From the IMG/VR virus record IMGVR_UViG_2597490083_000002: a DNA stretch of 57,346 nucleotides. One strand, 5' to 3'. The stretch's first letter is position 1; each line of letters begins with the position of its first letter. The position numbers and the translations under genes were made by a program. The notes below the pieces were generated by a model that saw only the letters and a program-made list of their open reading frames with translations, had not been told where the DNA came from and searched no databases. Below are positions 562 through 32,481 of this stretch, one piece after another. Source of the stretch: a virus (taxonomy: Duplodnaviria > Heunggongvirae > Uroviricota > Caudoviricetes).

Positions 562-1149
562 TTGTGACCATAAAACATTTATCAAAAATCTACTACTAGC
601 ATAGCAAAGCTACAATTAACATAACCTTAATAGACCCAACATAAAGAATAATCTGAATAGCTGCTCTATTTATTTCCGCTTGTTCAAGTTAAATATTTCC
701 GCGCATCGATTAAAGATGATGCGTCGTTTTCTGCGATGGGAATAGTCAAAAAAGAAAAACCAAGTCTTTTTTGATGACAAAATGCAATCAAGGAAAAATT
801 ATTTTATTTTTTTAACGAGATACAACAATCATCTTAACGAAGTATATAATATATATCGTCAACCCATGCTCATATTAGATTATTTTTTGAGCGCACAGCC
901 GCAGCTAACACCATTGCAATTAACAAATTTGCATCAATCCACCATCAATTTACACACATTATTATGTGATAATTGCCAACCGCTAAATATGCGTTTTGTT
1001 ATCTATGTATAAAAACAGCAACTTCAATGTCTTAATGGCAGTTTTTCTTGATTTTAATCAGCATTCATCGCCAATTTATTGGGCATATTTTTTCCTTAAG
1101 CTTTAGGAAGTTTTTATTATTTACTTTGGGCCTGGAGACAGGAAAAATT

Positions 1150-2535
1150 ATGCTGACATTCATTGAACTCCTTATTGGGGTTGTGGTTATTGTGGGTGTG
1201 GCTCGCTACATCATTAAAGGGTATTCCGCCACTGGTGTGTTATTTGTCGGTGGCCTGTTATTGCTGATTATCAGTGCCATTATGGGGCACAAAGTGTTAC
1301 CGTCCAGCCAGGCTTCAACAGGCTACAGCGCCACGGATATCGTTGAATACGTTAAAATATTACTAATGAGCCGCGGCGGCGACCTCGGCATGATGATTAT
1401 GATGCTGTGTGGCTTTGCCGCTTACATGACCCATATCGGCGCGAATGATATGGTGGTCAAGCTGGCGTCAAAACCATTGCAGTATATTAACTCCCCTTAC
1501 CTGCTGATGATTGCCGCCTATTTTGTTGCTTGTCTGATGTCACTGGCCGTCTCTTCCGCAACCGGTCTGGGGGTTTTGCTGATGGCAACCCTGTTTCCGG
1601 TGATGGTAAACGTTGGTATCAGTCGTGGCGCAGCAGCTGCCATTTGTGCCTCCCCGGCGGCGATTATTCTCGCACCGACTTCAGGGGATGTGGTGCTGGC
1701 GGCGCAGGCTTCCGAAATGTCGCTGATTGACTTCGCCTTCAAAACGACGCTGCCTATCTCAATTGCTGCAATTATCGGCATGGCGATCGCCCACTTCTTC
1801 TGGCAACGTTATCTGGATAAAAAAGAGCACATCTCTCATGAAATGTTAGATGTCAGTGAAATCACCACCACTGCCCCCGCGTTTTATGCCATTTTGCCGT
1901 TCACGCCGATCATCGGTGTACTGATTTTTGACGGTAAATGGGGTCCGCAATTACACATCATCACTATTCTGGTGATTTGTATGCTGATTGCCTCCATTCT
2001 GGAGTTCCTCCGCAGCTTTAATACCCAGAAAGTTTTCTCTGGTCTGGAAGTGGCTTATCGCGGGATGGCAGATGCGTTTGCTAACGTGGTGATGCTGCTG
2101 GTTGCCGCTGGGGTATTCGCTCAGGGGCTTAGCACCATCGGCTTTATTCAAAGTCTGATTTCTATCGCTACCTCGTTTGGTTCGGCGAGTATCATCCTGA
2201 TGCTGGTATTGGTGATTCTGACCATGCTGGCGGCAGTCACGACCGGTTCAGGCAATGCGCCGTTTTATGCGTTTGTTGAGATGATCCCGAAACTGGCGCA
2301 CTCTTCCGGCATTAACCCGGCGTATTTGACTATCCCGATGCTGCAGGCGTCAAACCTGGGTCGTACCCTATCACCCGTTTCTGGCGTAGTCGTTGCGGTT
2401 GCCGGGATGGCGAAAATCTCACCATTTGAAGTCGTAAAACGCACCTCGGTGCCGGTGCTTGTTGGGCTAGTGATTGTTATCGTTGCTACAGAGCTGATGG
2501 TGCCAGGAACGGCAGCAGCGGTCACAGGCAAGTAA
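1150..2535 (+). CDS. dcuC: Anaerobic C4-dicarboxylate transporter DcuC
   Basis: ORF 1048..2535; recognised DcuC N-terminus MLTFIELLIGVVV at 1150 after AGGAAA; 461 aa polytopic membrane protein, convergent with dpiA fragment as in E. coli. Confidence 0.9.
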   Translation: MLTFIELLIGVVVIVGVARYIIKGYSATGVLFVGGLLLLIISAIMGHKVLPSSQASTGYSATDIVEYVKILLMSRGGDLGMMIMMLCGFAAYMTHIGANDMVVKLASKPLQYINSPYLLMIAAYFVACLMSLAVSSATGLGVLLMATLFPVMVNVGISRGAAAAICASPAAIILAPTSGDVVLAAQASEMSLIDFAFKTTLPISIAAIIGMAIAHFFWQRYLDKKEHISHEMLDVSEITTTAPAFYAILPFTPIIGVLIFDGKWGPQLHIITILVICMLIASILEFLRSFNTQKVFSGLEVAYRGMADAFANVVMLLVAAGVFAQGLSTIGFIQSLISIATSFGSASIILMLVLVILTMLAAVTTGSGNAPFYAFVEMIPKLAHSSGINPAYLTIPMLQASNLGRTLSPVSGVVVAVAGMAKISPFEVVKRTSVPVLVGLVIVIVATELMVPGTAAAVTGK

Positions 2536-2543
2536 ATAGTAAT

Positions 2544-2570
2544 GCCGGAGGCAAGTTTCCTCCGGCTTTA
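2544..2570. terminator. Hairpin plus T-run between convergent dcuC and dpiA
   Basis: gccggagg-caagtttc-cctccggc followed by ttta; lies between the two convergent 3' ends. Confidence 0.45.
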
Positions 2571-2575
2571 TCATG

Positions 2576-2917
2576 TCACCCACTGTGGTATATGCGTTGT
2601 GGTCTGCCAACTTTGCCGTGAACAATTTCAGCAATAATCAGATGGCGGCTGGCGCAATATTCAAGATAACGCCTGGCAGTGGTGCGGCTGATGGTCAGTG
2701 CCTGCGCCACCGTTTCTGCCGTATGTTGCACACCAGGCTCTTTAAACAGTTTTCGCACCGCGTTTAGCGTCAAGGGGTCAATGCCGGTCGGCAGTTCGTC
2801 TTTGGGTTCACCGCGAGCATAGGCATTAAACATCTCATCAATTTGCTTCTGGCTGGCGCTATCAATACTTTCCAGCATATGTTTACGCTGGCGGAAACGG
2901 GTTAGCGTTTGCCCCAG
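2576..2917 (-). pseudogene. dpiA: dpiA (citB) response regulator, 3' fragment; 5' part displaced by Mu-like insertion
   Basis: ORF 2576..2878 has the winged-helix C-terminus (TTARRYLEYCASRHLIIAEIVHGKVGRPQRIYHSG); reading frame runs up to 2917 where Mu-type end sequence begins. Confidence 0.75.
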
Positions 2918-3254
2918 TGTATTGATTCACTTGAAGTACGAAAAAACCGGGAGAACATTGGATTATTCGGGATCTGATGGGATTAGATTTGGTGGGGCTT
3001 GCAAGCCTGTAGTACAAATTTTAGGCGTTAACCAATGAAACGCGAAAGATAGTAAAAAATTGCTTTTGTTTCATTGAAAAAACGAAAAACAAAAACACTA
3101 TAAATCATTTCAATCATAGCTTCAAAAAACGTTCAAAACCGATAACAACCAGGCTGTCATCAAATGACTCATATCACAAATCAGCTCATGCCGTTTAGGT
3201 ATGTTACATGTGTGATTATGTGAGGTGAAGTATGTTTTAGCTGGCTCATGGTTG
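2918..3254. promoter_or_regulatory. Mu-like attL terminal region (expected transposase end-binding sites)
   Basis: Position and sequence resemblance to the Mu left end as I recall it; individual binding sites not resolved. Confidence 0.45.
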
Positions 3255-3764
3255 TTATACGGCTTTTTTCGCATCTTGTGGTTCCAACAAAGGAGCTACA
3301 GGCTCTTCCTGTTTATGAACACCATACATTGACAAAATCTCTTGGCGAGTTTCTGGAGGTAATTTATGCAGCGCCAAAGCTGTTTGTAGTGTTTGGCGAT
3401 CAATACCCAGCGTTGCCAATAGGGTGTCAACGGAGATGGAGGGGCGTTCTTGCATTAATCCGGAAAGCCCATATTTAGCCATGTTTAGCTCTATCTCTCG
3501 GACTTCATTTTCTCCTAGTTTATTGATTAACAGGGAGAACATTTTCAATGTATCAGCATTCATTTCTTCGATAGCAATTTTTTGCATAGCCGGTATTGCC
3601 GGGATATATTCAACCCCAGGCCCGCGACGCCCTTCTTGTGAACGCTTCGGCCATCCTTCTTTCTTTGCTCGTTTATGCACCCCCTGTATTGTCCCAGGCA
3701 TTCCATCCAGTTCAGTAATTTGTTTGGGTGTCATCCACTGGTTTATCTCATTTGCGCTTTTCAT
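3255..3764 (-). CDS. Mu-like repressor c
   Basis: 169 aa; N-terminal winged-helix similar to the transposase N-terminus (GMPGTIQGVHKRAKKEGWPKR); C-terminus ...EILSMYGVHKQEEPVAPLLEPQDAKKAV resembles Mu Repc tail. Confidence 0.8.
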   Translation of the reverse strand: MKSANEINQWMTPKQITELDGMPGTIQGVHKRAKKEGWPKRSQEGRRGPGVEYIPAIPAMQKIAIEEMNADTLKMFSLLINKLGENEVREIELNMAKYGLSGLMQERPSISVDTLLATLGIDRQTLQTALALHKLPPETRQEILSMYGVHKQEEPVAPLLEPQDAKKAV

Positions 3765-3935
3765 AAACTAAGTTTACCAGATTTATCTATATAAAAATCA
3801 ATGGATTACAAAATAAACCACATTAACTGATATAAACCGGTTTGGTTTATTTGGTAATGTATAAAACAGATAATCAAGACGAATTATTTGTTTTGGTAAC
3901 CCTTTATCATACGCAATATGGTTGGTGTGCGAAAG
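3765..3935. promoter_or_regulatory. Divergent c / ner-A control region (operator and early promoter expected)
   Basis: AT-rich intergenic region between divergent repressor and ner; by analogy to the Mu O1-O3/Pe region. Confidence 0.4.
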
Positions 3936-4172
3936 ATGAGTAACGATTGGCATCGGGCCGACGTGATTGCGGCCCTCAAAAAAACAGGAACCCCTCTGGC
4001 AAAATTGTCCAGACGTTCAGGTTATTCAACCGGGACGCTTGCAAATGCATTAGTCAGGCCATGGCCTAAAGGTGAACGCATTATTGCTGACGCCTTAAAC
4101 ATGAAACCTGAGGAAATTTGGCCTAGTAGATATCTAAGGGATCACAATGAGAGAGTGGATATCAGCAATTGA
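3936..4172 (+). CDS. ner: Ner-like DNA-binding protein
   Basis: [13 protein letters not shown]...TLANAL...WPKGE..IA.AL...PE.IWPSRY matches Ner family; start at MSNDW inside ORF 3918..4172. Confidence 0.8.
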
Positions 4173-5781
4173 ATGCATGGGTTTATCTGGTTTACCTGGT
4201 TCATTAATGGGGGTTCACAAAAGAGCTCAGAGAGAAGGATGGCTCAAGAGAAGAAGAGAAGGAATTAGAGGGGTTGCTTACGAATACCATATATCTTCTC
4301 TTCCTAACATTGCTCGAGCTGAAGTTTTGCTCCAACAAGGAAAATTTAAAACCAGTCAGGGATGTTTTGAAATCGCCCGCCCCACGCTGGAAGCTCATGA
4401 TTATGATCGTGAGGCACTATGGAGCAAATGGGATAAAGCCAGCGATTCCCAGCGCAGCCTGGCTGAAAAATGGTTGCCCTCAATTCAGGCCACAGACGAA
4501 ATGCTGAACCAGGGGATTTCAACGAAAACGGCTTTTGCGACCGTTGCAGGGCATTACCAGGTCAGCGCATCCACTTTGCGGGACAAGTATTACCAGGTAC
4601 AGAAGTTTGCGAAGCCTGACTGGGCGGCTGCACTTGTTGATGGACGTGGAGCATCCCGTCGCAATGTTCACAAAAGTGAATTTGACGAGGATGCCTGGCA
4701 GTTTCTGATTGCAGATTATCTGCGACCGGAAAAACCCGCCTTCCGCAAATGTTATGAGCGTCTGGAACTGGCAGCCCGCGAGCATGGCTGGAGTATTCCC
4801 TCCCGTGCCACGGCCTTTCGCCGGATTCAGCAACTGGACGAGGCAATGGTTGTTGCCTGTCGTGAAGGTGAACATGCACTGATGCATCTGATACCGGCAC
4901 AGCAGCGAACTGTGGAACACCTGGACGCCATGCAGTGGATCAACGGCGACGGTTATCTGCATAACGTCTTTGTACGCTGGTTTAACGGTGATGTGATCCG
5001 TCCGAAAACATGGTTCTGGCAGGATGTGAAAACCCGAAAAATTCTGGGCTGGCGCTGCGATGTGAGCGAGAACATTGATTCAATTCGCCTCTCGTTCATG
5101 GATGTTGTGACTCGCTACAGTATCCCGGAGGATTTTCACATCACCATTGATAACACCCGTGGTGCTGCGAATAAATGGCTGACGGGAGGCGCGCCCAATC
5201 GCTACCGCTTTAAGGTAAAAGAGGACGATCCAAAAGGACTGTTTTTACTGATGGGTGCGAAAATGCACTGGACAAGCGTTGTTGCCGGTAAAGGCTGGGG
5301 CCAGGCAAAACCTGTTGAACGTGCTTTCGGTGTTGGTGGGCTTGAGGAATACGTTGATAAGCATCCGGCACTGGCTGGCGCATATACGGGGCCAAATCCG
5401 CAGGCAAAACCTGATAACTATGGCGACCACGCTGTTGATGCAGAGCTGTTTCTGAAAACCTTTGCCGAAGGTGTGGCGATGTTCAATGCCAGAACAGGCC
5501 GTGAAACAGAAATGTGCGGGGGCAAACTCTCGTTTGATGATGTTTTCGAGCGTGAATACGCCAGAACGATTGTGCGTAAGCCAACCGAAGAACAAAAACG
5601 GATGCTGTTACTGCCTGCCGAGGCGGTGAACGTTTCACGCAAAGGCGAGTTTACGCTTAAAGTTGGCGGCTCCCTTAAAGGCGCGAAAAACGTTTATTAC
5701 AACATGGCATTAATGAATGCCGGAGTGAAAAAAGTTGTGGTCAGATTTGATCCACAGCAGTTACACAGCACGGTTTATTGA
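4147..5781 (+). pseudogene. Mu-type DDE transposase A, truncated at residue 544 by IS600
   Basis: Strong identity to MuA as I recall it, through ...[15 protein letters not shown]; the stop codon TGA is the first 3 nt of the IS600 terminal repeat; C-terminal domain absent. Confidence 0.85.
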
Positions 5782-5842
5782 GATAGCCTGAGTTTAACGG
5801 ACACTCCTTCCTGAAATAGAATGGCATCAGAAGGAGCTAATA

Positions 5843-6145
5843 ATGAGCAGAAAAACCCAACGTTACTCTAAAGAGTTCAAAGCCGAAGCTGTCAGAACGG
5901 TTCTTGAAAATCAACTTTCGATCAGTGAAGGCGCTTCCCGATTATCCCTTCCTGAAGGCACTTTAGGACAATGGGTTACCGCCGCCAGAAAAGGGCTCGG
6001 TACTCCTGGTTCCCGCACGGTGGCTGAACTGGAATCTGAAATTCTGCAACTGCGTAAGGCGTTAAATGAAGCTCGCCTTGAGCGCGATATATTAAAAAAA
6101 GCAACAGCGTATTTTGCACAGGAGTCGCTGAAAAATACGCGTTAA
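5843..6145 (+). CDS. IS600 OrfA
   Basis: 100-aa HTH/leucine-zipper protein; identical copies at 20399..20701(-) and 29973..30275(+). Confidence 0.9.
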   Translation: MSRKTQRYSKEFKAEAVRTVLENQLSISEGASRLSLPEGTLGQWVTAARKGLGTPGSRTVAELESEILQLRKALNEARLERDILKKATAYFAQESLKNTR

Positions 6146-6180
6146 TCGAACAATGGCGACAACAATTTCCCATTGAAGCG

Positions 6181-6999
6181 ATGTGTCAGGTATTTGGTGT
6201 ATCCAGGAGCGGTTATTACAACTGGGTACAGCATGAACCCTCAGACAGAAAACAAAGTGATGAGCGGCTAAAACTGGAGATTAAGGTGGCACATATCCGC
6301 ACTCGCGAAACATATGGAACCCGGCGGCTCCAGACGGAGCTGGCAGAGAATGGCATCATCGTTGGTCGTGACCGACTGGCACGTCTTCGTAAGGAGCTGA
6401 GGCTACGCTGTAAGCAGAAACGCAAGTTCAGAGCGACTACGAACCCGAACCACAATCTGCCAGTTGCGCCAAATCTGCTGAACCAGACGTTCGCTCCTAC
6501 AGCACCAAATCAGGTCTGGGTGGCGGACCTGACGTATGTTGCCACACAGGAGGGATGGTTGTACCTCGCTGGCATCAAAGATGTTTATACGTGCGAAATT
6601 GTCGGCTACGCCATGGGAGAGCGCATGACAAAAGAGCTGACAGGTAAAGCCCTGTTTATGGCGCTCAGGAGCCAGCGCCCACCTGCCGGGCTAATCCACC
6701 ACTCTGATCGAGGTTCACAGTACTGCGCATACGATTACCGGGTCATACAGGAGCAGTCTGGTCTGAAAACATCAATGTCGCGTAAAGGTAACTGTTACGA
6801 CAACGCTCCGATGGAAAGCTTCTGGGGAACGCTGAAAAATGAGAGCCTGAGCCACTATCGTTTTAATAACCGGGATGAAGCCATCTCAGTAATACGGGAA
6901 TACATTGAGATTTTCTACAATCGTCAGCGTCGTCACTCTCGTCTGGGGAATATCTCCCCGGCAGCCTTCAGGGAAAAATATCATCAGATGGCTGCTTAA
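6181..6999 (+). CDS. IS600 OrfB (DDE catalytic domain; normally made as OrfAB by -1 frameshift)
   Basis: 272-aa IS3-family integrase-core ORF; identical copies elsewhere in window. Confidence 0.9.
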   Translation: MCQVFGVSRSGYYNWVQHEPSDRKQSDERLKLEIKVAHIRTRETYGTRRLQTELAENGIIVGRDRLARLRKELRLRCKQKRKFRATTNPNHNLPVAPNLLNQTFAPTAPNQVWVADLTYVATQEGWLYLAGIKDVYTCEIVGYAMGERMTKELTGKALFMALRSQRPPAGLIHHSDRGSQYCAYDYRVIQEQSGLKTSMSRKGNCYDNAPMESFWGTLKNESLSHYRFNNRDEAISVIREYIEIFYNRQRRHSRLGNISPAAFREKYHQMAA

Positions 7000-7042
7000 A
7001 AAAAGAACAAATGGTAGTGTCCGCTATTGCCAGTACACCTCA

Positions 7043-7241
7043 ATTCTTTGGCATTTTTTACCTCGTTACGCGCGTCTGTGGCTTTGCCAACGGATACTTC
7101 CGCGTGCGCACGAGTGAACCAGTGCGTGGCAACGTCTTCCTCCACAACATGACGGCCTTTAACAAACTCGCGCCGAGAACCGTCGGGAAGCGTGAGCACA
7201 AACGGGGTATGTACGTGTATTACTGCATCATTTTTTGCCAT
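7043..7241 (-). pseudogene. Hypothetical phage protein, 3' end removed by IS600
   Basis: ORF 6996..7241 runs into the IS600 right end; phage-derived part is 7043..7241, directly upstream of the capsid gene. Confidence 0.4.
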
Positions 7242-7282: not shown

Positions 7283-8224
7283 TTAAATGCCATCAACGTA
7301 CGAAATGGTTTCTTTGTACACTGGCTCGACTGCACCCAGCTTGCCGTAGTAAGTGACGATCTGATACAGACCGCGATACTGCACCGGCACGCTCTGAAGC
7401 GGAACCAGCGGGTAGCGGACGTATTTTTTATCGTTGGTGTACGCAACTATGCGATCCTTATTCCCCACACCACGGCCTTTCAGCCATTTAACCGCGCGGA
7501 TATTCAGCGGAACACCGTTCTGGTGATAGCTGATGGTGTTGGTCTGAAGGTTCGTCAACAGGGACTGGTTACCTGCAGATGAAACGATGATGCTGGACAA
7601 CAGAGCAAACTGCTCAGGCGGGATCAGCAAATCACGCGGAACCACAGAGTAACCAGAAGCGGCCCACGCATCAGACAGCACCTGGTTAATGCTTGCGCGG
7701 ATTTCGTCCGGTGTTGAGGTTGCCCACGTTTTGGCAGCGTTGTTGACAGGCACGCCGTCCAGGGTAACAAGGCCTTTCAGGTTTAATGCGGAATCGCCAA
7801 CATATACCTGTTCATCGTTATCCATCTGCCATTTCAGTTGCATACCGTCATACTTCTGCGTATCAATCGGGCGGCCGACCTGCTGAGCAGCCTGCAATTC
7901 TATGACCGTCCAGCCAAGTTCCATCCCCCACAGGTTCAGCGGGTTACCGGATTTGCCGATATCCACGTTCACGCCAGCAATAGCGGTTGAGTCTTTGCCT
8001 ACCCAGTTTTTTCCATTCGGATTTGCGCCAGTACCCGCAGCGGCGAAGCTGGTATTCGTCCAGCTGGAAATGTCATCTGCGATGGAGGCGTCTTCACGCA
8101 GTTGAATATCGCGGCTCCAGGTGTACCCCACCAGTGGCAGGTTCAGCGTCTGGTCGAGTCTCTCCAGCTCCCCGATGAGAAAGGCACCAGAGCTGTCAAC
8201 GGTTGCCTGATCAAAAGTAATCAT
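7283..8224 (-). CDS. Putative phage major capsid protein
   Basis: 313 aa, last gene of a terS-terL-portal-head morphogenesis-scaffold-capsid order; assignment by position and composition, not a recognised named homolog. Confidence 0.55.
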   Translation of the reverse strand: MITFDQATVDSSGAFLIGELERLDQTLNLPLVGYTWSRDIQLREDASIADDISSWTNTSFAAAGTGANPNGKNWVGKDSTAIAGVNVDIGKSGNPLNLWGMELGWTVIELQAAQQVGRPIDTQKYDGMQLKWQMDNDEQVYVGDSALNLKGLVTLDGVPVNNAAKTWATSTPDEIRASINQVLSDAWAASGYSVVPRDLLIPPEQFALLSSIIVSSAGNQSLLTNLQTNTISYHQNGVPLNIRAVKWLKGRGVGNKDRIVAYTNDKKYVRYPLVPLQSVPVQYRGLYQIVTYYGKLGAVEPVYKETISYVDGI

Positions 8225-8368
8225 TCGTCTGTTCCTTAAATCTTCCAGGAAATTTCTGCATTGCCGTCAGCATCACCGGCACCTGTGAATTCAGCGTTGG
8301 TCAGCACCACGTTTTTGCCACTGACTGACGTGGACATGAATCCACCCAGAGGCACTTTGATGGATTCA

Positions 8369-8725
8369 TCAGTGGAGATCGCCTTTTTTGATAGTGCTGG
8401 CATCAAAATCAGAACCGAGATTAACGGTCACGTAGCCACGCTTCATGGCGTCGCCCGGGAAGTTCTTGCCTGTTCCCACCTGGCGAACCATGTCCGGCTG
8501 CGACGTGGTCGGATAAGGGCGCACGTAGATCCCCTTCACCTTGTCTGCGGTATCACCATCTGCCAGCGGCACGAAAAAACCGTCATCATCGTATTTACCA
8601 GCCAGGCCATAGGCAGCGAAGGCGTTATCGGATTTAAGGACCACCGGTTCGACGGTTAAGTCCTGCGGGCGAGAGACAGCCCCGGCAATGCCAACAGGCA
8701 TCCGGTACAGAAATACATTATTCAT
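8369..8725 (-). CDS. Phage head protein (hypothetical; decoration-like small protein)
   Basis: 118 aa between scaffold/protease-like gene and capsid gene. Confidence 0.35.
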   Translation of the reverse strand: MNNVFLYRMPVGIAGAVSRPQDLTVEPVVLKSDNAFAAYGLAGKYDDDGFFVPLADGDTADKVKGIYVRPYPTTSQPDMVRQVGTGKNFPGDAMKRGYVTVNLGSDFDASTIKKGDLH

Positions 8726-8728
8726 TTT

Positions 8729-9949
8729 TTACCCTTTACGGTTTGCCCAGAATTCAGCGTTTTGTTTGTTCAGGGAAGCGATACTGGTCATGCCCATGTT
8801 TAGGCGCTGTGCATCGCCGGTGGTGGCGCGGGTGTTTCGCCCTTTGGCAACCTCAGACACGGCATTAAACGCCATGTCGACCGATTGTTTCGGTAATTTG
8901 CGGATATCCGCATCACCGACTATCTGGCGAACCAGCGTTTTGTCAGCAGAAGCCAGAACCTCGCGTTTGAACGCGGTCGGTTTCATCTTACGGCTCAGAT
9001 CGATACCCGGAACGATAACTTCGGCACGCCAGGCTGAGTCACCAGTAATCGTGGTTTCCTCTTCATCGTCCTCGCCGTCACCGGTCGGATTATCGTCAGG
9101 CTTATTATCGTTATCGCCCGTGGCATTTCTTTCCAGCTTAGCCAGCAGGGCTTTCAGTAATGTTTTGAGGTCATCATCACTGTCGCCGGTTGGATCTCCG
9201 CCCATCTCTGGTGCTTTGTCCGGTAGTGGTTGCTGCGGGGACAGGTTGATGTTGAGATTAACGCCCTGCGGCAAATCCCCCTCATCTCCTGTAACCGATG
9301 CGGGAGCCGACTCCACCAGTTCGTTCATGGTGTCGGCATCTCCTGTCTTGATGGCCGCACGCATGCGGTTCCACCAGTTTTTCTTTTGATTTGCCATTGT
9401 GTCTCTGTCTCCAATTGCACAACGATTTCCGGCTCTGCCTTTAGGGACAAGAGCCACATGGTTTCCGGTAATATCGACCTGCTCGGCTTTACCTGGCTCG
9501 GTCTGCTCGTACTCCGCGTCATAGCCGCACGACACTTCGCGCAGGCCATCTTCGATAAGCTGAATGGCGCTTTCGTCTTTGACGATAAGGTCAGCCAGCA
9601 TCAAATCAGACTGCTCACCCGTCCCGCGCCGGACATTCTGGAGGTGCCCGACAGCAAGCACTTTCCAGTTCTCGGGATTTACCAGCCGCACATTCCCGTT
9701 TTCATCTTCAGGATGCAGGATCGTGATGCTCATCCCTTCGAATGAGGCAAGCGTGGCCGGATGGAATACCTGCTCAGGAGAACGCGTGACGACTATTTCA
9801 ACGAACTTATCGGGTTTCAGTTTTGGCAGGTCATCAGCACCATAGAGCTGCTTACCTGTTCGTCCTATCGGCACGTCTTTGCACAGCAACGAGCCGTCAG
9901 CCAGGCGGTATCGGGTTTCCCCGAGCCTGGTCTCAAAAAAGTATTTCAT
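8729..9949 (-). CDS. Putative head scaffold/maturation protein
   Basis: 406 aa with long acidic low-complexity central tract (GDSDDDL...GDGEDDEEETT), typical of scaffold-type proteins; position between head-morphogenesis and capsid genes. Confidence 0.45.
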   Translation of the reverse strand: MKYFFETRLGETRYRLADGSLLCKDVPIGRTGKQLYGADDLPKLKPDKFVEIVVTRSPEQVFHPATLASFEGMSITILHPEDENGNVRLVNPENWKVLAVGHLQNVRRGTGEQSDLMLADLIVKDESAIQLIEDGLREVSCGYDAEYEQTEPGKAEQVDITGNHVALVPKGRAGNRCAIGDRDTMANQKKNWWNRMRAAIKTGDADTMNELVESAPASVTGDEGDLPQGVNLNINLSPQQPLPDKAPEMGGDPTGDSDDDLKTLLKALLAKLERNATGDNDNKPDDNPTGDGEDDEEETTITGDSAWRAEVIVPGIDLSRKMKPTAFKREVLASADKTLVRQIVGDADIRKLPKQSVDMAFNAVSEVAKGRNTRATTGDAQRLNMGMTSIASLNKQNAEFWANRKG

Positions 9950-9952
9950 GGG

Positions 9953-10735
9953 TTATGCTGCCCTTTTCATTGCGAATGGAACGCGAACAAACACGATCTC
10001 TTTATAGCAGCGGCAGTTTGGCAGCTCGCCCGCGTGGCCGGTCATGCCGTCCAAAGTTGGAGGTGAATCCCAGCGGACGAATTTACCTTTCATGTGATCG
10101 TGGGAATCTCGGACATCGCCATCATCGGCTGTACGCCAAATATAACCATCCGAGCCAATAGCTATCGCTCGGGCCATATCCAGCGCGCCCGTTGCTCTTC
10201 CCAGTTCCGTTCGGGCAATCAGATCGGCCCTAGACTTAGCAACATCGCCGGTAGATGCAATCTCTTTAGCAAACTGCTCCGCCCGACCACCGGTGACAAC
10301 AGCCTCTATCGCTTTGTTCTGGATGTCGTACACCCTGTCTGCGGCCTCGAGAGGCAGAGATTTGATGTACTTGACCTGTTCGGCGATGATGGATTGCATC
10401 ACCTGGCCCACAGGAGCGCTTTCCACAAGATTGCGGAGCTCGCGACTGATGTTCTTGCTGTGTTGCCGCCAAACTTTCTCGTTCTGCCGGGTTAGGTCCG
10501 CAGTAAAGTTTTCCGCGACCTTTGTCGCCCAGGGGGTGATGATTTCACTGTAACGCTCCAGCGCCGCAATAATTTCCGTGATACTGTCATTTGAACCATC
10601 GTAGCGACCATTTACGATGTCTCCGACCGCCCTCGCTATCCTGCGTAGGCTGGTTCGATACCGGATTTCCGCCTGACGGCTCCTGCGGTTCGTCATCAGG
10701 TTCGCCGATGCCGGGCGGCGCTTCATCTTCGGCAT
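9953..10735 (-). CDS. Phage head morphogenesis protein (Mu F / SPP1 gp7-like)
   Basis: 260 aa; placed directly after portal; true start may be an internal Met because the ORF overlaps the portal 3' end. Confidence 0.6.
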   Translation of the reverse strand: MPKMKRRPASANLMTNRRSRQAEIRYRTSLRRIARAVGDIVNGRYDGSNDSITEIIAALERYSEIITPWATKVAENFTADLTRQNEKVWRQHSKNISRELRNLVESAPVGQVMQSIIAEQVKYIKSLPLEAADRVYDIQNKAIEAVVTGGRAEQFAKEIASTGDVAKSRADLIARTELGRATGALDMARAIAIGSDGYIWRTADDGDVRDSHDHMKGKFVRWDSPPTLDGMTGHAGELPNCRCYKEIVFVRVPFAMKRAA

Positions 10736-12053
10736 TCTCGATGTCCTCGTTGGTAATGGATGCCCCTATGCCGGTTACGTCAGAATTTTCTCGCAAATCA
10801 GTCATAGCGGCTTTCAGTGTCATCAGACCATCACCCATCGCCGTACTGATTGCGTTGGTGGTGTTTAACGCCACCGTTGAGCGATCGACATCAGACATTT
10901 GCCAGAGCGGGTTAAACTCAAACGTGAAATCGTCCGGCAGCGGCTTGCCAAGTTCCGAACGATGCATGATGTCCAGTATCCGCCGCACCGGAAGACGTAA
11001 ACGCCTCTCCTGCAACGAACTGATGCGATCGTAATAGTTGGCAAGGTCTGCATCACCGGTAGAAAATCCTTTCGGGGACTGTCCGAACAACCGCACCAGT
11101 GGGATACCAACAGCGCCACTAATCTGTTCTGCAAACTGCGAAAGGATGTCATCCAGACCACTGAAGCTGTACTGATGGGTTTCAAACTTATCCCGCGAGT
11201 CCATGAGCGTCATGCCTTCATTACTCTGGAACTGTCGAATCAGGTCGATATTCTTCAGCAACGCTTCATACGCAGGACCACCAAGTGCGATAAGCTCGCG
11301 TAGCTTCTCCACGCTGTAGGTACGCAAATGCGCCTTGTAGACCAGCTGCGCCGCGCCGACAGTAGCGCTGTCGAACGCGGTAAGACGATCCCAGATACGC
11401 TCTACAACCGACATTCCCCATTCGTTCTCGGTCATCTTCTGCTGAAATGGCAACGTGACGCCATCAAAGCGAATCAGGCGACTGTGATGAATGCGCCAGG
11501 CAGGAATTCCCGTTGCTGTGGTCACCACATCGTAAAACTCAGGTTTACCCAGGTCCGGCCCCATATCTTTAATGCGGCGGGTCAGTGCCGGGTCGACCAT
11601 CCAGCGGTCGAGCGGGAGAATCCCCTTAAACTTGCCCTTACCGATGGTTTCGGGTCGCAGCGGGGTCATTGGTGCCTGCCCCTCAATCATGATGAAACCC
11701 ACCGCGCCGCCGTAGAGGCGCGACCATTTCAGCACGTCATTCAGCGCATCCCAGATTTGCAACTCATCCAGTTGTGATTCGAGAATGCCACGATCTTTTG
11801 CATCAATTTCCGAAGTGATGCGAATGCCTTTGCGGGTCATATCATCCGGGATAGCATCGACTGCTTCGCCGATGATCCAGGATGAACGATAGGACCATTC
11901 CACCAGCATGCGGTTACGACTGGTGAAATTAGCCCGGTAGGTGGATGCTGAGTGCTGGTTAGGTGTCTGCATCCCTACTCGGGCAATAAAATTCTCATAA
12001 CCATCAGCTGTGGCCTGCACAGTTCGCCGCAGGGCTTGTTTGTTTCGTGCCAT
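10587..12053 (-). CDS. Phage portal protein
   Basis: 488 aa immediately downstream of terminase large subunit; size and position typical of portal. Confidence 0.6.
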   Translation of the reverse strand: MARNKQALRRTVQATADGYENFIARVGMQTPNQHSASTYRANFTSRNRMLVEWSYRSSWIIGEAVDAIPDDMTRKGIRITSEIDAKDRGILESQLDELQIWDALNDVLKWSRLYGGAVGFIMIEGQAPMTPLRPETIGKGKFKGILPLDRWMVDPALTRRIKDMGPDLGKPEFYDVVTTATGIPAWRIHHSRLIRFDGVTLPFQQKMTENEWGMSVVERIWDRLTAFDSATVGAAQLVYKAHLRTYSVEKLRELIALGGPAYEALLKNIDLIRQFQSNEGMTLMDSRDKFETHQYSFSGLDDILSQFAEQISGAVGIPLVRLFGQSPKGFSTGDADLANYYDRISSLQERRLRLPVRRILDIMHRSELGKPLPDDFTFEFNPLWQMSDVDRSTVALNTTNAISTAMGDGLMTLKAAMTDLRENSDVTGIGASITNEDIENAEDEAPPGIGEPDDEPQEPSGGNPVSNQPTQDSEGGRRHRKWSLRWFK

Positions 12054-12797
12054 CAGGCCTGTCTCCCCAGCTGTTCCCAGATATCCAGCGATGTATCGAT
12101 TGGCGCGAAGGCCATAATGAATGCATCAGCAACGTTTGGTGACGGTATCTCGCGTTTTGCGAGGTCTTTTTTACTTTCGACCATCACACGTCCGTTACGG
12201 TCGAAATCACGATGAGGTGTTGTCAGTTCCAGTTTCAGCTTTTCAAGCAACGGACAACGAGAATCTATGCTGATCAGCTCATCCACAGGATACTGTTCTC
12301 CGTTGTTAATGGCGTTAAACGTATTTCTGAAACGGTCAGCCACCATGCCTGAGCCTTAAGATTTGCGAAAAAGTCTTTGTTGGGGATGCCGTTGTACTCG
12401 TCATCTGGCTCATGCACACCAGCACCGGCGTTAAACCTCTGGTAATTCACACGTCGCGCGTATGCGTTCTCGCTCTTCCGGTCAGCGTTAATTTCAGAGA
12501 ATTTAGCACCGGCAGACGCACCAACACCGATAGAGTCGTAAACAATATCTGCTTCACGCTCCAGCGCCGCCTGATAAGTACGCTGGCAGCTCTTCAGTAA
12601 TTCATCTTCTTTGGCCTTCCATTCGTCGGCCCAGAAAACAACGGATCCGTGACGGTAAACGTTAGCGCACTTATCTGTACCACTGTCAGCCACGTCAAAG
12701 CCAATACGCTTTCTTCCACTGGGTTCGAAATTTAACGTTTTGTGCGCATCCACTGCGGCTTCTATCCAAGACAGTTTGATGATTGCTGGATTTGCCC

Positions 12798-13703
12798 CTA
12801 TATTTCCAGACATCTGTTATCACTTAACCCATTACAAGCCCGCTGCCGCAGATATTCCCGTGGCGAGCGATAACCCAGCGCACTATGCGGATGCCATTCG
12901 TTATAATGCTCGAACGCCTCTGCAAGGTTCTTTGCTGCCGTTAACCCGTCTGGTTTGGGCATGATACTGATGTAGTCACGCTTTATCGTTTTCACGAAGC
13001 TCTCTGCTATTCCGTTACTCTCCGGACTACGCACCGCCGTGTTCTTCGGTTCAAGTCCCAACATCCGGGCGAACTGGCGTGTTTCATTAGCCCGGTAGCA
13101 TGAACCATTATCCGTCAGCCACTCCACTGGAGACGACGGAAGATCGTTGCCGAAGCGGCGTTCCACCGCTCCCAGCATGACGTCCTGTACTGTTTCACTG
13201 TTGAAGCCGCCGGTAGTCACCGCCCAGTGCAGTGCCTCACGATCACAGCAGTCCAGCGCGAACGTGACACGCAGTCTCTCTCCGTTATCACAGCAGAACT
13301 CGAACCCGTCAGAGCACCATCGCTGATTGCTTTCTTTCACGGCCACTCTGCCTGTATGTGCCCGTTTCGATGGCGGTACAGCAGGTTTTCGCTCAAGCAA
13401 CAGCGCATTCTGGCGCATGAGCCGGTAAACACGTTTGGCATTGATCGCAGGCATACCATCAAGTTCTGCCTGTCTGCGAAGCAGCGCCCATACCCGACGA
13501 TAACCATACGTGGGCAGCTCTCCGATAACATGGTGTATACGGAGAAGCACATCCGTATCATCAGTGTGACGACTGCGGCGGCCATCCATCCAGTCATCGG
13601 TTCGTCTGAGAATGACGTGCAACTGCGCACGCGACACCCGGAGACAACGGCTGACTAAGCTTACTCCCCATCCCCGGGCAATAAGGGCGCGTGCGCTATC
13701 CAC
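12798..13703 (-). CDS. insD: IS2 OrfB (InsD)
   Basis: 301-aa DDE transposase ORF matching IS2 InsD. Confidence 0.9.
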
Positions 13704-14026
13704 TTTTTTGCCCGTCCATATTCAACGGCTTCTTTGAGGAGTTCATTTTCCATCGTTTTCTTGCCGAGCAGGCGCTGGAGTTCTTTAATCTGCTTCATGG
13801 CGGCAGCAAGTTCAGAGGCAGGAACAACCTGTTCTCCGGCGGCCACAGCAGTAAGACTTCCTTCCTGGTATTGCTTACGCCAGAGAAATAACTGGCTGGC
13901 TGCTACACCATGTTGCCGGGCAACGAGGGAGACCGTCATCCCCGGTTCAAAGCTCTGCTGAACAATTGCGATCTTTTCCTGTGTGGTACGCCGTCTGCGT
14001 TTCTCCGGCCCTAAGACATCAATCAT
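13661..14026 (-). CDS. insC: IS2 OrfA (InsC)
   Basis: Begins [26 protein letters not shown] inside ORF 13661..14071. Confidence 0.85.
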
Positions 14027-14735
14027 CTGTTCTCCAATGACTAGTCTAAAAACTAGTATTAAGACTATCACTTAAATAAGTGATACTGGTTGTCTGGAGA
14101 TTCAGGGGGCCAGTCTAATTGCCGCATCATCATCAGACTCCGGAACGCCCTCATACACATGTTTAAAACCATCCGGATCACGGCGTCGCGCCGCGTCGAT
14201 AACCTTAAGCATGGTGTCAGACAGAAACGGATTTTCGTCATAGTTAATTTTGCGGATGAGAGTGCCTTCGGGCGGATCAACAACGAAGTTGCGCCAGACG
14301 AAATCAGTAACAAGTCCGGGGTTGAATATGAACCAGCATTCCGAACCCTCTTTACGGATCGTTGGCTCCAGAATTTTCCACTGGTATTCCGTCAGTGCGT
14401 GGGCTTCTTCCAACCACAACATATCGATCCCCTCCAGTGACTTAATTTCTTCGATGTTGCGCCATAATCCATAAAAAACAAATTCCGAGCCAGTAACCCG
14501 GTTAATGATTTTGTTGTTCAGAATACGGAAACGGTGCCGCAGACCAAACCTGTCTATCTGAATTTTGAGCAGGGTATACACCGACTCTTCGATTTTATTC
14601 TGGATCTGACGGGCACAACAAAAACGCAGGGTGTATTTATTCGACAGAAATATGGCAATGCCAGCGGCATCCCATGATTTTGACGATGACCGACCACCAT
14701 AAAGCACTTTGTTACGTGCCCGCATAGTCCAGAAA

Positions 14736-16541: not shown

Positions 16542-16613
16542 TGAAGTGGCACACTGAATTTGGCCACCTGAACAGAGGTGATATGCTCACCTCAGAACAA
16601 CACAGGTGCTCCA

Positions 16614-18499: not shown

Positions 18500-18500
18500 A

Positions 18501-19501: not shown

Positions 19502-19544
19502 TGAGGTGTACTGGCAATAGCGGACACTACCATTTGTTCTTTTT

Positions 19545-20363
19545 TTAAGCAGCCATCTGATGATATTTTTCCCTGAAGGCTGCCGGGGAGATATTCCCCA
19601 GACGAGAGTGACGACGCTGACGATTGTAGAAAATCTCAATGTATTCCCGTATTACTGAGATGGCTTCATCCCGGTTATTAAAACGATAGTGGCTCAGGCT
19701 CTCATTTTTCAGCGTTCCCCAGAAGCTTTCCATCGGAGCGTTGTCGTAACAGTTACCTTTACGCGACATTGATGTTTTCAGACCAGACTGCTCCTGTATG
19801 ACCCGGTAATCGTATGCGCAGTACTGTGAACCTCGATCAGAGTGGTGGATTAGCCCGGCAGGTGGGCGCTGGCTCCTGAGCGCCATAAACAGGGCTTTAC
19901 CTGTCAGCTCTTTTGTCATGCGCTCTCCCATGGCGTAGCCGACAATTTCGCACGTATAAACATCTTTGATGCCAGCGAGGTACAACCATCCCTCCTGTGT
20001 GGCAACATACGTCAGGTCCGCCACCCAGACCTGATTTGGTGCTGTAGGAGCGAACGTCTGGTTCAGCAGATTTGGCGCAACTGGCAGATTGTGGTTCGGG
20101 TTCGTAGTCGCTCTGAACTTGCGTTTCTGCTTACAGCGTAGCCTCAGCTCCTTACGAAGACGTGCCAGTCGGTCACGACCAACGATGATGCCATTCTCTG
20201 CCAGCTCCGTCTGGAGCCGCCGGGTTCCATATGTTTCGCGAGTGCGGATATGTGCCACCTTAATCTCCAGTTTTAGCCGCTCATCACTTTGTTTTCTGTC
20301 TGAGGGTTCATGCTGTACCCAGTTGTAATAACCGCTCCTGGATACACCAAATACCTGACACAT
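19545..20363 (-). CDS. IS600 OrfB
   Basis: Identical 272-aa ORF. Confidence 0.9.
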   Translation of the reverse strand: MCQVFGVSRSGYYNWVQHEPSDRKQSDERLKLEIKVAHIRTRETYGTRRLQTELAENGIIVGRDRLARLRKELRLRCKQKRKFRATTNPNHNLPVAPNLLNQTFAPTAPNQVWVADLTYVATQEGWLYLAGIKDVYTCEIVGYAMGERMTKELTGKALFMALRSQRPPAGLIHHSDRGSQYCAYDYRVIQEQSGLKTSMSRKGNCYDNAPMESFWGTLKNESLSHYRFNNRDEAISVIREYIEIFYNRQRRHSRLGNISPAAFREKYHQMAA

Positions 20364-20398
20364 CGCTTCAATGGGAAATTGTTGTCGCCATTGTTCGA

Positions 20399-20701
20399 TT
20401 AACGCGTATTTTTCAGCGACTCCTGTGCAAAATACGCTGTTGCTTTTTTTAATATATCTCGCTCAAGGCGAGCTTCATTTAACGCCTTACGCAGTTGCAG
20501 AATTTCAGATTCCAGTTCAGCCACCGTGCGGGAACCAGGAGTACCGAGCCCTTTTCTGGCGGCGGTAACCCATTGTCCTAAAGTGCCTTCAGGAAGGGAT
20601 AATCGGGAAGCGCCTTCACTGATCGAAAGTTGATTTTCAAGAACCGTTCTGACAGCTTCGGCTTTGAACTCTTTAGAGTAACGTTGGGTTTTTCTGCTCA
20701 T
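20399..20701 (-). CDS. IS600 OrfA
   Basis: Near-identical 100-aa ORF. Confidence 0.9.
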   Translation of the reverse strand: MSRKTQRYSKEFKAEAVRTVLENQLSISEGASRLSLPEGTLGQWVTAARKGLGTPGSRTVAELESEILQLRKALNEARLERDILKKATAYFAQESLKNTR

Positions 20702-20976
20702 TATTAGCTCCTTCTGATGCCATTCTATTTCAGGAAGGAGTGTCCGTTAAACTCAGGCTACCTCAGTCAGCGCTGGAACGACGAGAAGCCAGAAACCATT
20801 CAACCACAATCCAGACCATCATCCGCAATCACCGTATCGAAAACTGGCTATGTGTTTTTCGACAGGTGAACCATGAAATCAAAAATCAAATCGCTACTGG
20901 TCGCTGGTTATAACCACGGCTGGTTAAGTATTTCGTTTGTCGATTTCTGGTTTAAAAATCTCAATCTGAGGGAATC

Positions 20977-29908: not shown

Positions 29909-29972
29909 TGAGGTAGCCTGAGTTTAACGGACACTCCTTCCTGAAATAGAATGGCATCAGAAGGAGCTAATA

Positions 29973-30275
29973 ATGAGCAGAAAAACCCAACGTTACTCTA
30001 AAGAGTTCAAAGCCGAAGCTGTCAGAACGGTTCTTGAAAATCAACTTTCGATCAGTGAAGGCGCTTCCCGATTATCTCTTCCTGAAGGCACTTTAGGACA
30101 ATGGGTTACCGCCGCCAGAAAAGGGCTCGGTACTCCTGGTTCCCGCACGGTGGCTGAACTGGAATCTGAAATTCTGCAACTGCGTAAGGCGTTAAATGAA
30201 GCTCGCCTTGAGCGAGATATATTAAAAAAAGCAACAGCGTATTTTGCACAGGAGTCGCTGAAAAATACGCGTTAA
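29973..30275 (+). CDS. IS600 OrfA
   Basis: Identical 100-aa ORF. Confidence 0.9.
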   Translation: MSRKTQRYSKEFKAEAVRTVLENQLSISEGASRLSLPEGTLGQWVTAARKGLGTPGSRTVAELESEILQLRKALNEARLERDILKKATAYFAQESLKNTR

Positions 30276-30325
30276 TCGAACAATGAACCGCCCCGGGTTT
30301 CCTGGAGAGTGTTTTATCTGTGAAC

Positions 30326-31208
<883 letters not shown>

Positions 31209-31212
<4 letters not shown>

Positions 31213-31535
31213 TTTTTCCAGAGGCGGTCGAACTCCGCCTTCGCAAAATAAGCGGAAGCCTGGCGAAGGATATCGTTACTGCGGCGCAGTTCACGATTTT
31301 CACGCTCCGGCTCTTTCAGACGCTGACGTTCAGCGGTGGTGAGCCCTCCATCACCGCCCCCGGTATCCCGCTCATGCTGGCGAACCCAGACACGCAGAGT
31401 CTCCGGCGTACAGCCAATCTTTGGAGCAATGGAACAAATTGTCGCCCATTGTGAGTCATATTCGCCCTGACTTTCCAGAACCATACGGACTGCCCGTTGA
31501 CGGACTTCGGGGGAAAAACGAGTATTTTTAGTCAT
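31209..31535 (-). CDS. IS629 OrfA
   Basis: [42 protein letters not shown]... 108 aa. Confidence 0.85.
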
Positions 31536-31619
31536 CCTGTTTACCTCTTTCTCAGGAAGTTTAGTCTCCAGGATTCCCGGGGCGGTTCACAATGGCGACA
31601 ACAATTTCCCATTGAAGCG

Positions 31620-32438
31620 ATGTGTCAGGTATTTGGTGTATCCAGGAGCGGTTATTACAACTGGGTACAGCATGAACCCTCAGACAGAAAACAAAGTGAT
31701 GAGCGGCTAAAACTGGAGATTAAGGTGGCACATATCCGCACTCGCGAAACATATGGAACCCGGCGGCTCCAGACGGAGCTGGCAGAGAATGGCATCATCG
31801 TTGGTCGTGACCGACTGGCACGTCTTCGTAAGGAGCTGAGGCTACGCTGTAAGCAGAAACGCAAGTTCAGAGCGACTACGAACCCGAACCACAATCTGCC
31901 AGTTGCGCCAAATCTGCTGAACCAGACGTTCGCTCCTACAGCACCAAATCAGGTCTGGGTGGCGGACCTGACGTATGTTGCCACACAGGAGGGATGGTTG
32001 TACCTCGCTGGCATCAAAGATGTTTATACGTGCGAAATTGTCGGCTACGCCATGGGAGAGCGCATGACAAAAGAGCTGACAGGTAAAGCCCTGTTTATGG
32101 CGCTCAGGAGCCAGCGCCCACCTGCCGGGCTAATCCACCACTCTGATCGAGGTTCACAGTACTGCGCATACGATTACCGGGTCATACAGGAGCAGTCTGG
32201 TCTGAAAACATCAATGTCGCGTAAAGGTAACTGTTACGACAACGCTCCGATGGAAAGCTTCTGGGGAACGCTGAAAAATGAGAGCCTGAGCCACTATCGT
32301 TTTAATAACCGGGATGAAGCCATCTCAGTAATACGGGAATACATTGAGATTTTCTACAATCGTCAGCGTCGTCACTCTCGTCTGGGGAATATCTCCCCGG
32401 CAGCCTTCAGGGAAAAATATCATCAGATGGCTGCTTAA
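31620..32438 (+). CDS. IS600 OrfB
   Basis: Identical 272-aa ORF; the upstream extension in ORF 31497..32438 is IS629 end sequence. Confidence 0.85.
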   Translation: MCQVFGVSRSGYYNWVQHEPSDRKQSDERLKLEIKVAHIRTRETYGTRRLQTELAENGIIVGRDRLARLRKELRLRCKQKRKFRATTNPNHNLPVAPNLLNQTFAPTAPNQVWVADLTYVATQEGWLYLAGIKDVYTCEIVGYAMGERMTKELTGKALFMALRSQRPPAGLIHHSDRGSQYCAYDYRVIQEQSGLKTSMSRKGNCYDNAPMESFWGTLKNESLSHYRFNNRDEAISVIREYIEIFYNRQRRHSRLGNISPAAFREKYHQMAA

Positions 32439-32481
32439 AAAAAGAACAAATGGTAGTGTCCGCTATTGCCAGTACACCTCA

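Follow-up and report, generated by a model that had tools for sequence, protein, structure and literature searches.

IS600, described from E. coli, EIEC and Shigella, is a 1264-bp element with TG...CA ends that carries OrfA (HTH_Tnp_1) and OrfB (rve). In Shigella, IS-associated rearrangement takes place at a high rate (PMC8072062). Here we describe an IS600 copy (copy 1) within the window, the whole stretch of 57,346 nucleotides that was analysed. It shares the length, ends and genes of its relatives, and its surroundings resemble other IS-mediated rearrangements of Shigella in having a multi-copy IS at a synteny break, pseudogenised neighbours and a state fixed in the lineage. Unlike the usual IS600, however, copy 1 lacks a 3-bp target duplication and has a private G>A substitution at position 5 of its left inverted repeat. 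Contrary to the host-locus rearrangements of Shigella, both partners here lie inside prophages, one in gene A of Mu and the other in a head gene of a myovirus.

The left partner shares a canonical L end and the c-ner-A gene order with the Muvirus phages Mu, D108 and SfMu, and its A gene is 98% identical over 1.45 kb; unlike complete Muvirus prophages, it is reduced to the first 2.86 kb. Shared Southern-blot bands have suggested that most S. flexneri strains carry a Mu-related remnant, and the c-ner region of SfMu could not be amplified from other S. flexneri strains (PMC4406740). The right partner resembles prophages of the SEN34 and vB_EcoM-689R2 type. It has the same order of head genes and is colinear over 5.7 kb, at 99.3% identity with intact E. 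coli prophages and 95% with vB_EcoM phages. Unlike the intact SEN34-type prophages, the copy in the window has no tail module, its terminase gene is split by IS2, and its Q-tRNA segment lies in inverted orientation between IS911 and IS600.

Results

Features of the locus

The features on which the analysis draws are as follows.

1048..2535, plus strand: host gene dcuC (Pfam DcuC, E=4.8e-151)
2576..2917, minus strand: 3' fragment of the host response regulator gene dpiA, cut by the Mu insertion (the match to K-12 ends inside dpiA)
2918..5778, plus strand: left-end remnant of a Mu-type prophage (BLAST to phage Mu, Pfam, PHROG)
3255-3764, minus strand: Mu repressor c (Pfam/PHROG matches)
3918-4172, within the Mu left-end remnant: Mu ner (Pfam/PHROG matches)
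4147-5778, plus strand: first 544 codons of Mu transposase A (ORF 4147-5781, 544 aa)
5779..7042, plus strand: IS600 copy 1, complete, 1264 bp, flanked by TAT and ATT, with no target-site duplication
5843-6145, plus strand: OrfA of IS600 copy 1 (ORF list)
6181-6999, plus strand: OrfB of IS600 copy 1 (ORF list)
7043..7241, minus strand: STY1053-family head-region gene without its last 7 codons (phrog_6497 positions 1-66 of 73)
7283..12786, minus strand: head/packaging module of a SEN34-like temperate myovirus prophage (Pfam, PHROG)
7283-8224, minus strand: DUF2184 major capsid protein (Pfam/PHROG)
8369-8725, minus strand: cement or minor capsid protein (Pfam/PHROG)
8729-9949, minus strand: DUF2213 protease or scaffold (Pfam/PHROG)
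9953-10735, minus strand: Mu-F-like head morphogenesis protein (Pfam/PHROG)
10587-12053, minus strand: DUF1073 portal (Pfam/PHROG)
up to 12786, minus strand: 3' part of the large terminase gene, at the end of the head/packaging module
12787..14117, minus strand: IS2 in the terminase gene, a simple insertion with the 5-bp duplication ATTGC
19502..20765, minus strand: IS600 copy 2, flanked by GAC and CTG in IS orientation, with no target duplication
29909..32481, plus strand: IS600 copy 3, split by a nested element, with outer flanks GGG and AAC and no duplication
30284-31589: IS629-like IS3-family element nested in IS600 copy 3, with the duplication CAA

The Mu stump and IS600 copy 1

Transposition had placed a Mu-type phage inside the host gene dpiA. 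The corresponding K-12 sequence (locus L012, 14202-17118) aligns in reverse to window positions 2917-1 at 98.8%, and the final host base, window 2917, is K-12 654,201. At this joint GCCCCAG is followed by TGTATTGATTCACTTGAAGTACGAA, with the canonical Mu end directly at host DNA; the L end of the remnant reads TGTATTGATTCACTTGAAGTACG... In S. flexneri records the dpiA fragment is called PF20714 HTH_64. When the stump was compared with phage Mu by BLAST, Mu 1-447 matched at 91.7% and Mu 1519-2964 at 98.0%, a megablast match to Mu 448-1518 in the c-ner region was absent, and the best phage matches were Mu and D108. Transposase A ends at codon 544 of 663, with residues 545-663 missing. All four Mu transposase Pfam domains are matched, the C-terminal one (Mu-transpos_C) only over positions 1-50 of 61, and the stump does not encode a full-length transposase with C-terminal domain III. 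The stop codon of the truncated gene, TGA, is made of the first three bases of IS600 copy 1, and the right end of Mu is absent from the 57-kb window.

Copy 1 is 99.7% identical, over 1264/1264 bp, to elements annotated as 'IS3-like element IS600 family transposase'. It begins with TGAGATAGCC and ends with CACCTCA, giving termini of the TG...CA inverted-repeat type that equal those of seven control copies except at position 5; the second of its two private substitutions is at position 307. OrfA (HTH) and OrfB (DDE/rve) appear to form the overlapping-frame pair joined by a putative -1 frameshift, as judged on the ORFs, the Pfam matches and a recorded 385-aa product. The same gene in S. flexneri records has PF01527, PF00665 and PF13683 as well as this joined product. 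Compared with copies 2 and 3, copy 1 shows only the two private substitutions, and nothing in its sequence is mosaic in a way that would point to a crossover. Apart from being a potentially mobile IS, it serves no function at present.

The head module

The product of 7043-7241 is identical to the first 66 of the 73 residues of the annotated STY1053-family protein in an intact prophage. Its reading frame continues for 15 codons into IS600 and stops at 6996, which gives a fusion of 81 aa. Beyond it, the head module is colinear with the intact prophage (L002, 12001-17768) at 99.3%. The earlier note had called this segment a lambdoid head-gene module unrelated to the Mu-like stump. It is indeed unrelated to Mu, but it is not of the lambda type: the Pfam matches of the head genes at 7283-12053 (PF06381, PF04233, PF09979, PF23982 and PF09950) and their nearest phages, vB_EcoM-689R2 and SEN34-type myoviruses, identify it as SEN34-like. 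These genes lack homology to the lambda head proteins (gpB, the S49 protease gpC, gpD and gpE), and a lambda-type set (S49 peptidase, gpJ etc.) sits elsewhere in the window, at about 32.7-56 kb. In a broad sense the prophage may still be termed lambdoid, judging by the late-regulation and lysis genes of its colinear intact relatives, which carry DUF1133/DUF1364 late-regulator-region genes, a holin, RrrD and lysis genes, hokD, Cro/CI and ydaT/ydaV. The lambdoid look of this prophage type is confined to its early and lysis regions.

The joint

Two unrelated elements are joined at copy 1, since the left and the right flank each follow an intact reference of their own as far as the IS boundary. 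On the left the match to Mu runs to Mu 2962-2964, after which Mu continues differently, GGTTTAT being followed there by TGCTACACC. At the right joint the intact prophage reads GACTTTG followed by ATTCTTTGG; the match begins at the very first base after the IS, and leftwards the intact prophage goes on to DUF4054 and tail genes, of which the window has none. Neither the Mu nor the myovirus continuation occurs anywhere in the 57 kb. The canonical L end within the host gene dpiA shows that Mu was an element distinct from the myovirus prophage. The SEN34-like prophage also lay in the same chromosome as Mu. A single IS600 now links codon 544 of Mu A to codon 66 of the STY1053-family gene.

The IS is preceded by TAT and followed by ATT, which form no direct repeat. 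Among seven control IS600 copies from E. coli genomes, five have a perfect 3-bp duplication, one has a 4-bp duplication and one has none, where a 3-bp match is expected by chance in 1 of 64 cases. The position of the joint is fixed only within 2 nt, as TG are both the next two bases of Mu after TAT and the first two of the IS. This overlap on the Mu side is compatible both with recombination between two IS600 copies and with transposition of a single one. The description in the earlier note thus proved accurate for the IS600 copy at 5779-7042, the truncated Mu-type A gene to its left, the 3'-truncated head-region ORF to its right and the unequal triplets, which read exactly as claimed.

Occurrence

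The junction is real, widespread and fixed in S. flexneri. Nine S. flexneri chromosomes or large contigs share both junction 50-mers without a difference, among them LM651928.1, CP001383.1, CP012137.1, CP020342.1, CP026772.1 and CP182556.1. The left junction additionally occurs in two contigs whose ends fall within the IS or shortly beyond it, and in five IMG/VR contigs. The ORF of the Mu A stump is present in 945 collection blocks and the 81-aa fusion ORF in 471, among them 92 blocks with a longest contig above 1 Mb. None of the 5426 complete E. coli genomes contained the whole junction, the two flanks contiguous, or Mu at the same dpiA site. In the S. flexneri representative genome the C-terminal part of Mu A is missing: the search recovered only residues 1-545, even though it used a motif at residue 589.

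Discussion

Origin of the joint

The earlier note had read the locus as a product of recombination between IS copies or of IS-adjacent deletion, and not as a simple insertion. An IS-dependent rearrangement is borne out by flanks that come from two loci and by the missing duplication, and the comparison with related genomes that it proposed revealed contiguous flanks without IS600 in no complete E. coli genome. A single deletion as the whole cause did not hold up, because the host flanks are oppositely oriented relative to K-12: K-12 coordinates fall along the host DNA to the left of the prophage cluster (dacA to dcuC to dpiA') and rise along that to its right (ybhB to bioA, at the lambda attachment site). 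At least one inversion of about 150 kb, roughly K-12 654-807 kb, would have belonged to the multi-step history that includes the joint.

We consider it likely, at a probability of about 0.6, that copy 1 is a recombinant joint whose two sides derive from different earlier IS600 insertions. One IS600 would have inserted in Mu gene A, duplicating TAT, and another near the 3' end of the STY1053-family gene, duplicating ATT. Homologous (RecA-type) recombination between these 1.26-kb repeats could then have joined the Mu stump to the head module. The remainder of Mu (about 33.7 kb) would have gone to the other product, together with the 5' portion of dpiA and the tail module of the prophage. That product would have been lost, either at once or through later IS-driven events; its hybrid junction is expected to read ...GGCAGACTTTGATT, IS600, TATTGCTACACC... 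We infer this two-copy origin from the scar itself, since the protein searches and contig scans yielded no reciprocal junction and neither of the parental insertions (a TAT-duplicated IS600 in intact Mu A and an ATT-duplicated one in an intact STY1053 gene).

The same scar, a complete IS with no duplication and with flanks from two loci, would be left by a single IS600 at one site that underwent intramolecular transposition into the other, producing an adjacent deletion or inversion in one step. Such a step could proceed, for instance, through a reactive tandem dimer or circle junction, which are known from IS3-family elements, and the missing second parental insertion also agrees with it. The copy-out/paste-in transposition of this family normally yields simple insertions, however, and six of the seven control copies are simple insertions with duplications. 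Moreover, the many genomic IS600 copies, three of them in the window alone, offer 1.26 kb of homology, and homologous recombination easily spans distances of tens to about 150 kb. We therefore regard transposition of a single element as possible but rather unlikely. That a simple insertion struck an older Mu/prophage joint and its 3-bp duplication was later mutated away seems very improbable. Nothing but the presence of a complete IS would suit this explanation, whereas the older joint would need to lie at the IS ends with single-base precision, TAT and ATT differ by at least two substitutions, and the flanks are contiguous in no genome among the complete E. coli searched. IS600 is multi-copy and a classic cause of mis-assembly, which raises the question of whether two contigs were mis-joined across it. 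The identity of both junction 50-mers in nine independent chromosomes or large contigs, the 92 blocks in which contigs above 1 Mb accompany the junction-specific 81-aa ORF, and the five IMG/VR contigs with the left junction make such an artefact barely credible.

The preferred reading, recombination between two IS600 copies, also agrees with the rest of the window. None of its three IS600 copies has a duplication, whereas IS2 and the IS629-like element do, and this pattern fits repeated IS600-IS600 exchange in the region. Copy 2 adjoins the inverted Q-tRNA fragment of the same myovirus-type prophage. Inversion between the window's own IS600 copies was rejected, as the six triplets (TAT/ATT, GAC/CTG and GGG/AAC) never pair in any combination; the partner of copy 1 would therefore lie outside the window.

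Candidate traces of the lost sequences

An exact-pattern scan for the predicted reciprocal or simple-insertion junctions gave no match in viral_contigs, against five for the real left junction as positive control; a single match in metagenome_contigs was a chance one in sequence that resembles neither IS600 nor Mu. A protein search did not recover the 5' part of dpiA, and the sole 117-aa match to an N-terminal DpiA stump came from an E. coli locus that is normal but for a frameshift in dpiA. No variant of the DUF4054 protein had an IS-derived or truncated N-terminus.

C-terminal fragments of Mu A came from several sources. Those of P0156 lie on contigs that begin at Mu 2964-2966 and are best explained by assembly-graph forks in strains with a second, complete Mu-like prophage; the P0155 fragment is a contig-end fragment; and that of P0162, from an unrelated sample, lies beside the end of an IS10 located 22 bp upstream of where IS600 sits. 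In E. coli VL7S7 (H61) a match reached 13 nt further into the right flank, which proved to be a chance resemblance at an IS600 between yjaZ and thiH with its own GAC duplication. IS2 was rejected as a sign of shared descent with the pgl-adjacent prophage of E. coli FDAARGOS_943, as the two IS2 sites are 215 bp apart and independent. A locus of EIEC O121 has IS600 within a DUF3383 gene and IS911 beside a 'Gam' gene, but it belongs to a different prophage at yebW/yebY.

Consequences for the prophages

The joint explains two dead prophages, a Mu without everything after codon 544 of A and a myovirus prophage without its tail genes, and it permanently inactivates both. It is conceivable, though we think it improbable, that the Mu stump, with an intact c, ner and the DNA-binding and catalytic-core domains of A, is kept because it makes S. 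flexneri immune to incoming Mu-type phages of its own immunity type or interferes with them, the IS600 joint fixing this state. The c, ner and A ORFs are open in most of the genomes examined. In some, however, A is shortened or not called, and decay may simply not have had enough time since fixation. The event itself is of a kind already known, an ordinary scar of IS-mediated rearrangement and a textbook case for a multi-copy IS in Shigella; it matters little beyond bookkeeping and raises no new question. Within that bookkeeping, copy 1 marks one end of a synteny break relative to E. coli K-12, and the junction 50-mers serve as a lineage marker that separates the S. flexneri carriers from the 5426 E. 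coli genomes.

Mu remnant and myovirus prophage joined by IS600

The element at window 5779–7042 is a bona fide IS600. It is 1264 bp long, starts with TGAGATAGCC and ends with CACCTCA, and shows 99.7% identity over its full length to IS600-annotated elements of E. coli genomes, in agreement with the IS600 copy that the earlier note placed at this junction. Compared with copies 2 and 3 further right in the window, this copy 1 carries two private substitutions, at window 5783 and 6085 (IS positions 5 and 307). The G>A change at position 5 lies in the terminal inverted repeat; all 11 S. flexneri loci that were checked have it, and the seven E. coli control copies lack it. Copy 3 and its IS629-like insert form an IS nested in an IS.

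Mu genes and IS600 copies in the window
3255–3764, minus: repressor c
3918–4172: ner
4147–5781: transposase A stump, all four Mu transposase Pfam domains
5843–6145: IS600 copy 1 OrfA
6181–6999: IS600 copy 1 OrfB
19502–20765, minus: IS600 copy 2
29909–32481, plus: IS600 copy 3, interrupted by a nested IS629-like element
30284–31589: IS629-like IS3-family element, 1306 bp, inside IS600 copy 3, CAA duplication

To the left of IS600 copy 1 lies a genuine Mu left end. Host DNA (pagP', dcuC and the dpiA 3' part) aligns with K-12 in the reverse direction as far as window 2917 (K-12 654,201, within dpiA), and the canonical Mu L end, TGTATTGATTCACTTGAAGTACG, starts at 2918. Mu interrupts dpiA (citB), a response-regulator gene of the host (window 2576–2917/2918). 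The closest phages to this Mu stump are Mu and D108. Its transposase A measures 544 aa versus 663, is 98% identical at the DNA level to Mu 1519–2964, and stops at a TGA at the start of IS600 copy 1.

On the right, 7043–7241 (minus) codes for residues 1–66 of a 73-residue STY1053-family protein, and the truncated ORF extends 15 codons into IS600 copy 1. Beyond it lie genes for a DUF2184 major capsid protein, a cement protein, a DUF2213 protein, a Mu-F-like protein, a DUF1073 portal and the large terminase. This stretch is colinear at 99.3% with intact prophages of E. coli FDAARGOS_944 and FDAARGOS_943, and shows 95% identity to vB_EcoM-689R2-type phages and 82% to Salmonella phage SEN34. Prophages of this type combine lambdoid-looking late-regulation and lysis genes with a contractile tail. 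The earlier note was therefore right that an unrelated head module adjoins the Mu stump, but the head genes are not of lambda type: the right flank belongs with the SEN34-like myovirus prophages and not with the lambda head-gene family. The large terminase gene is interrupted by IS2 (window 12787–14117; 5-bp duplication ATTGC). A similar prophage in FDAARGOS_943 has IS2 in the same gene 215 bp away, so the two are independent insertions.

Simple insertion versus rearrangement

The triplets flanking IS600 copy 1 (TAT versus ATT) form no direct repeat, as had been noticed from the sequence, while six of the seven control copies in E. coli genomes have a duplication (perfect 3-bp in five, 4-bp in one; none in the seventh). 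More telling are the empty sites: Mu reads ...GGTTTAT and then TGCTACACC, and the intact prophage reads ...GACTTTG and then ATTCTTTGG. Each flank tracks its own reference exactly to the IS end, with a 2-nt TG ambiguity at the Mu-side joint, and neither the Mu nor the intact-prophage continuation was found anywhere in the window. We regard this comparison as decisive against simple insertion of copy 1; together with the missing duplication, it bears out the proposed rearrangement. None of the window's three IS600 copies has a target duplication, in contrast to IS2 (ATTGC) and the nested IS629-like element (CAA), and pairing their six flanks does not recover one in any combination.

Two routes could have produced such a joint. 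Two IS600 copies at different places would recombine, one product retaining just one, hybrid IS whose two flanks stem from different parents; alternatively, a one-step transposase-mediated rearrangement from a single IS600 copy would leave the same scar. We favour homologous exchange between IS600 copies because the element is multi-copy here, because simple insertions are its normal transposition product, as the control copies indicate, and because three copies that lack a duplication sit in a 27-kb stretch. Shigella genomes are known for the expansion of IS elements and for rearrangements associated with them (PMC8072062).

Recombination between IS copies or IS-adjacent deletion had both been suggested earlier, and deletion alone does not suffice. 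K-12 coordinates fall along the left host flank (657 kb to 654.2 kb, window 1–2917) and rise along the right one (from 807.3 kb upward, window 56765–57346), so that more than one step must have been involved, among them at least one inversion whose ends lie near K-12 654 kb and 807 kb. A synteny break of ~150 kb, probably an inversion, has the prophage/IS cluster at one of its ends. As the sole place where Mu sequence ends, the IS600 copy 1 joint is the prime candidate for an inversion end point, though a later deletion may have removed the true one.

Search for reciprocal and ancestral forms

Neither the reciprocal junction nor the ancestral single IS600 insertions were found in protein-collection searches and contig pattern scans; the scans returned nothing, while their positive control, the real left junction, gave five matches. 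In the S. flexneri representative of the GTDB collection, Mu A is limited to residues 1–545, though one search motif lay at residue 589. The protein collection held no DpiA N-terminal stump, and no IS-truncated DUF4054 protein was seen. S. flexneri has most likely lost the rest of Mu, the dpiA 5' part and the tail module.

Mu A C-terminal fragments were considered as the other product and rejected as contig-end effects or an unrelated IS10 insertion. In a Logan contig from an unrelated sample (SRR11783474, positions 1–26), a Mu-like A gene directly adjoins the end of an IS10; the joint falls 22 bp upstream of the position that IS600 occupies here.

Occurrence of the junction

The IS600 junction is real, fixed and lineage-specific. 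In the assembly collection, 945 blocks encode the 544-aa A stump, with the same neighbourhood at every place shown (e.g. CP001383.1, CP012137.1, CP020342.1, CP026772.1, LM651928.1). In nine A-stump loci the two junction 50-mers, with the G>A at IS position 5, agree base for base; two more loci have the left junction and end before the right one. The 81-aa fusion ORF, in which the STY1053-family gene reads on into IS600, occurs in 471 blocks, 92 of them with contigs >1 Mb. The junction is absent from all 5426 complete E. coli genomes; none of them has Mu at the same dpiA site, and none has the two flanks contiguous without IS600, the arrangement that the earlier note set against its own reading. 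The junction is already present in published S. flexneri genome records and is a finding of known kind. In the SfMu study, two Southern-blot bands were common to most S. flexneri strains, a Mu-related remnant was suggested, and SfMu c-ner PCR was negative in those strains (PMC4406740); these results fit a heteroimmune Mu stump like the present one.

Other prophage and IS features

Further features of the window
16366–16541 and 29732–29907: 176-bp perfect inverted repeat, lysis-gene (Rz-region) fragments
16542–17790 and 22803–24051: two inverted IS911 copies, 99.8% identical to each other
18423–18732 and 27460–27770: four-gene tRNA cluster (Met/Ile-CAT, Arg-TCT, Thr-TGT, Gly-TCC), two copies, 98.5% identical
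20977–22836: Toprim-type primase ORF, 619 aa, truncated by IS911
32.7–56.7 kb: lambda-type ipaH prophage, ending at the lambda attachment site by ybhB and bioA
54524–56287: ipaH effector gene, 587 aa, LRR_TTSS and NEL domains

The IS911 pair encloses IS600 copy 2, the primase fragment and a Q-tRNA segment of the myovirus prophage; this segment is inverted and is bounded by IS911 and IS600 copy 2. Neither IS911 copy has a target duplication, and pairing their flanks by inversion between the copies matches two of three bases in both pairings. The inverted segment and the duplication-less pair are further IS-driven events in the region. The two arms of the 176-bp repeat run up to IS911 and IS600 copy 3, respectively; the tRNA clusters lie one in each late-regulatory region of two prophages.

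The primase ORF may contain an intein or homing-endonuclease insert, as suggested by two weak Pfam matches, one to Hom_end_hint that stays below the curated cut-off (E=3.1e-05) and one to LAGLIDADG_3 that lies just above it (E=4.3e-05). At its tail end, the lambda-type prophage carries the ipaH gene, adjoining the lambda attachment site and ybhB; the exact protein sequence of this ipaH is on record in CP004057.1 only.
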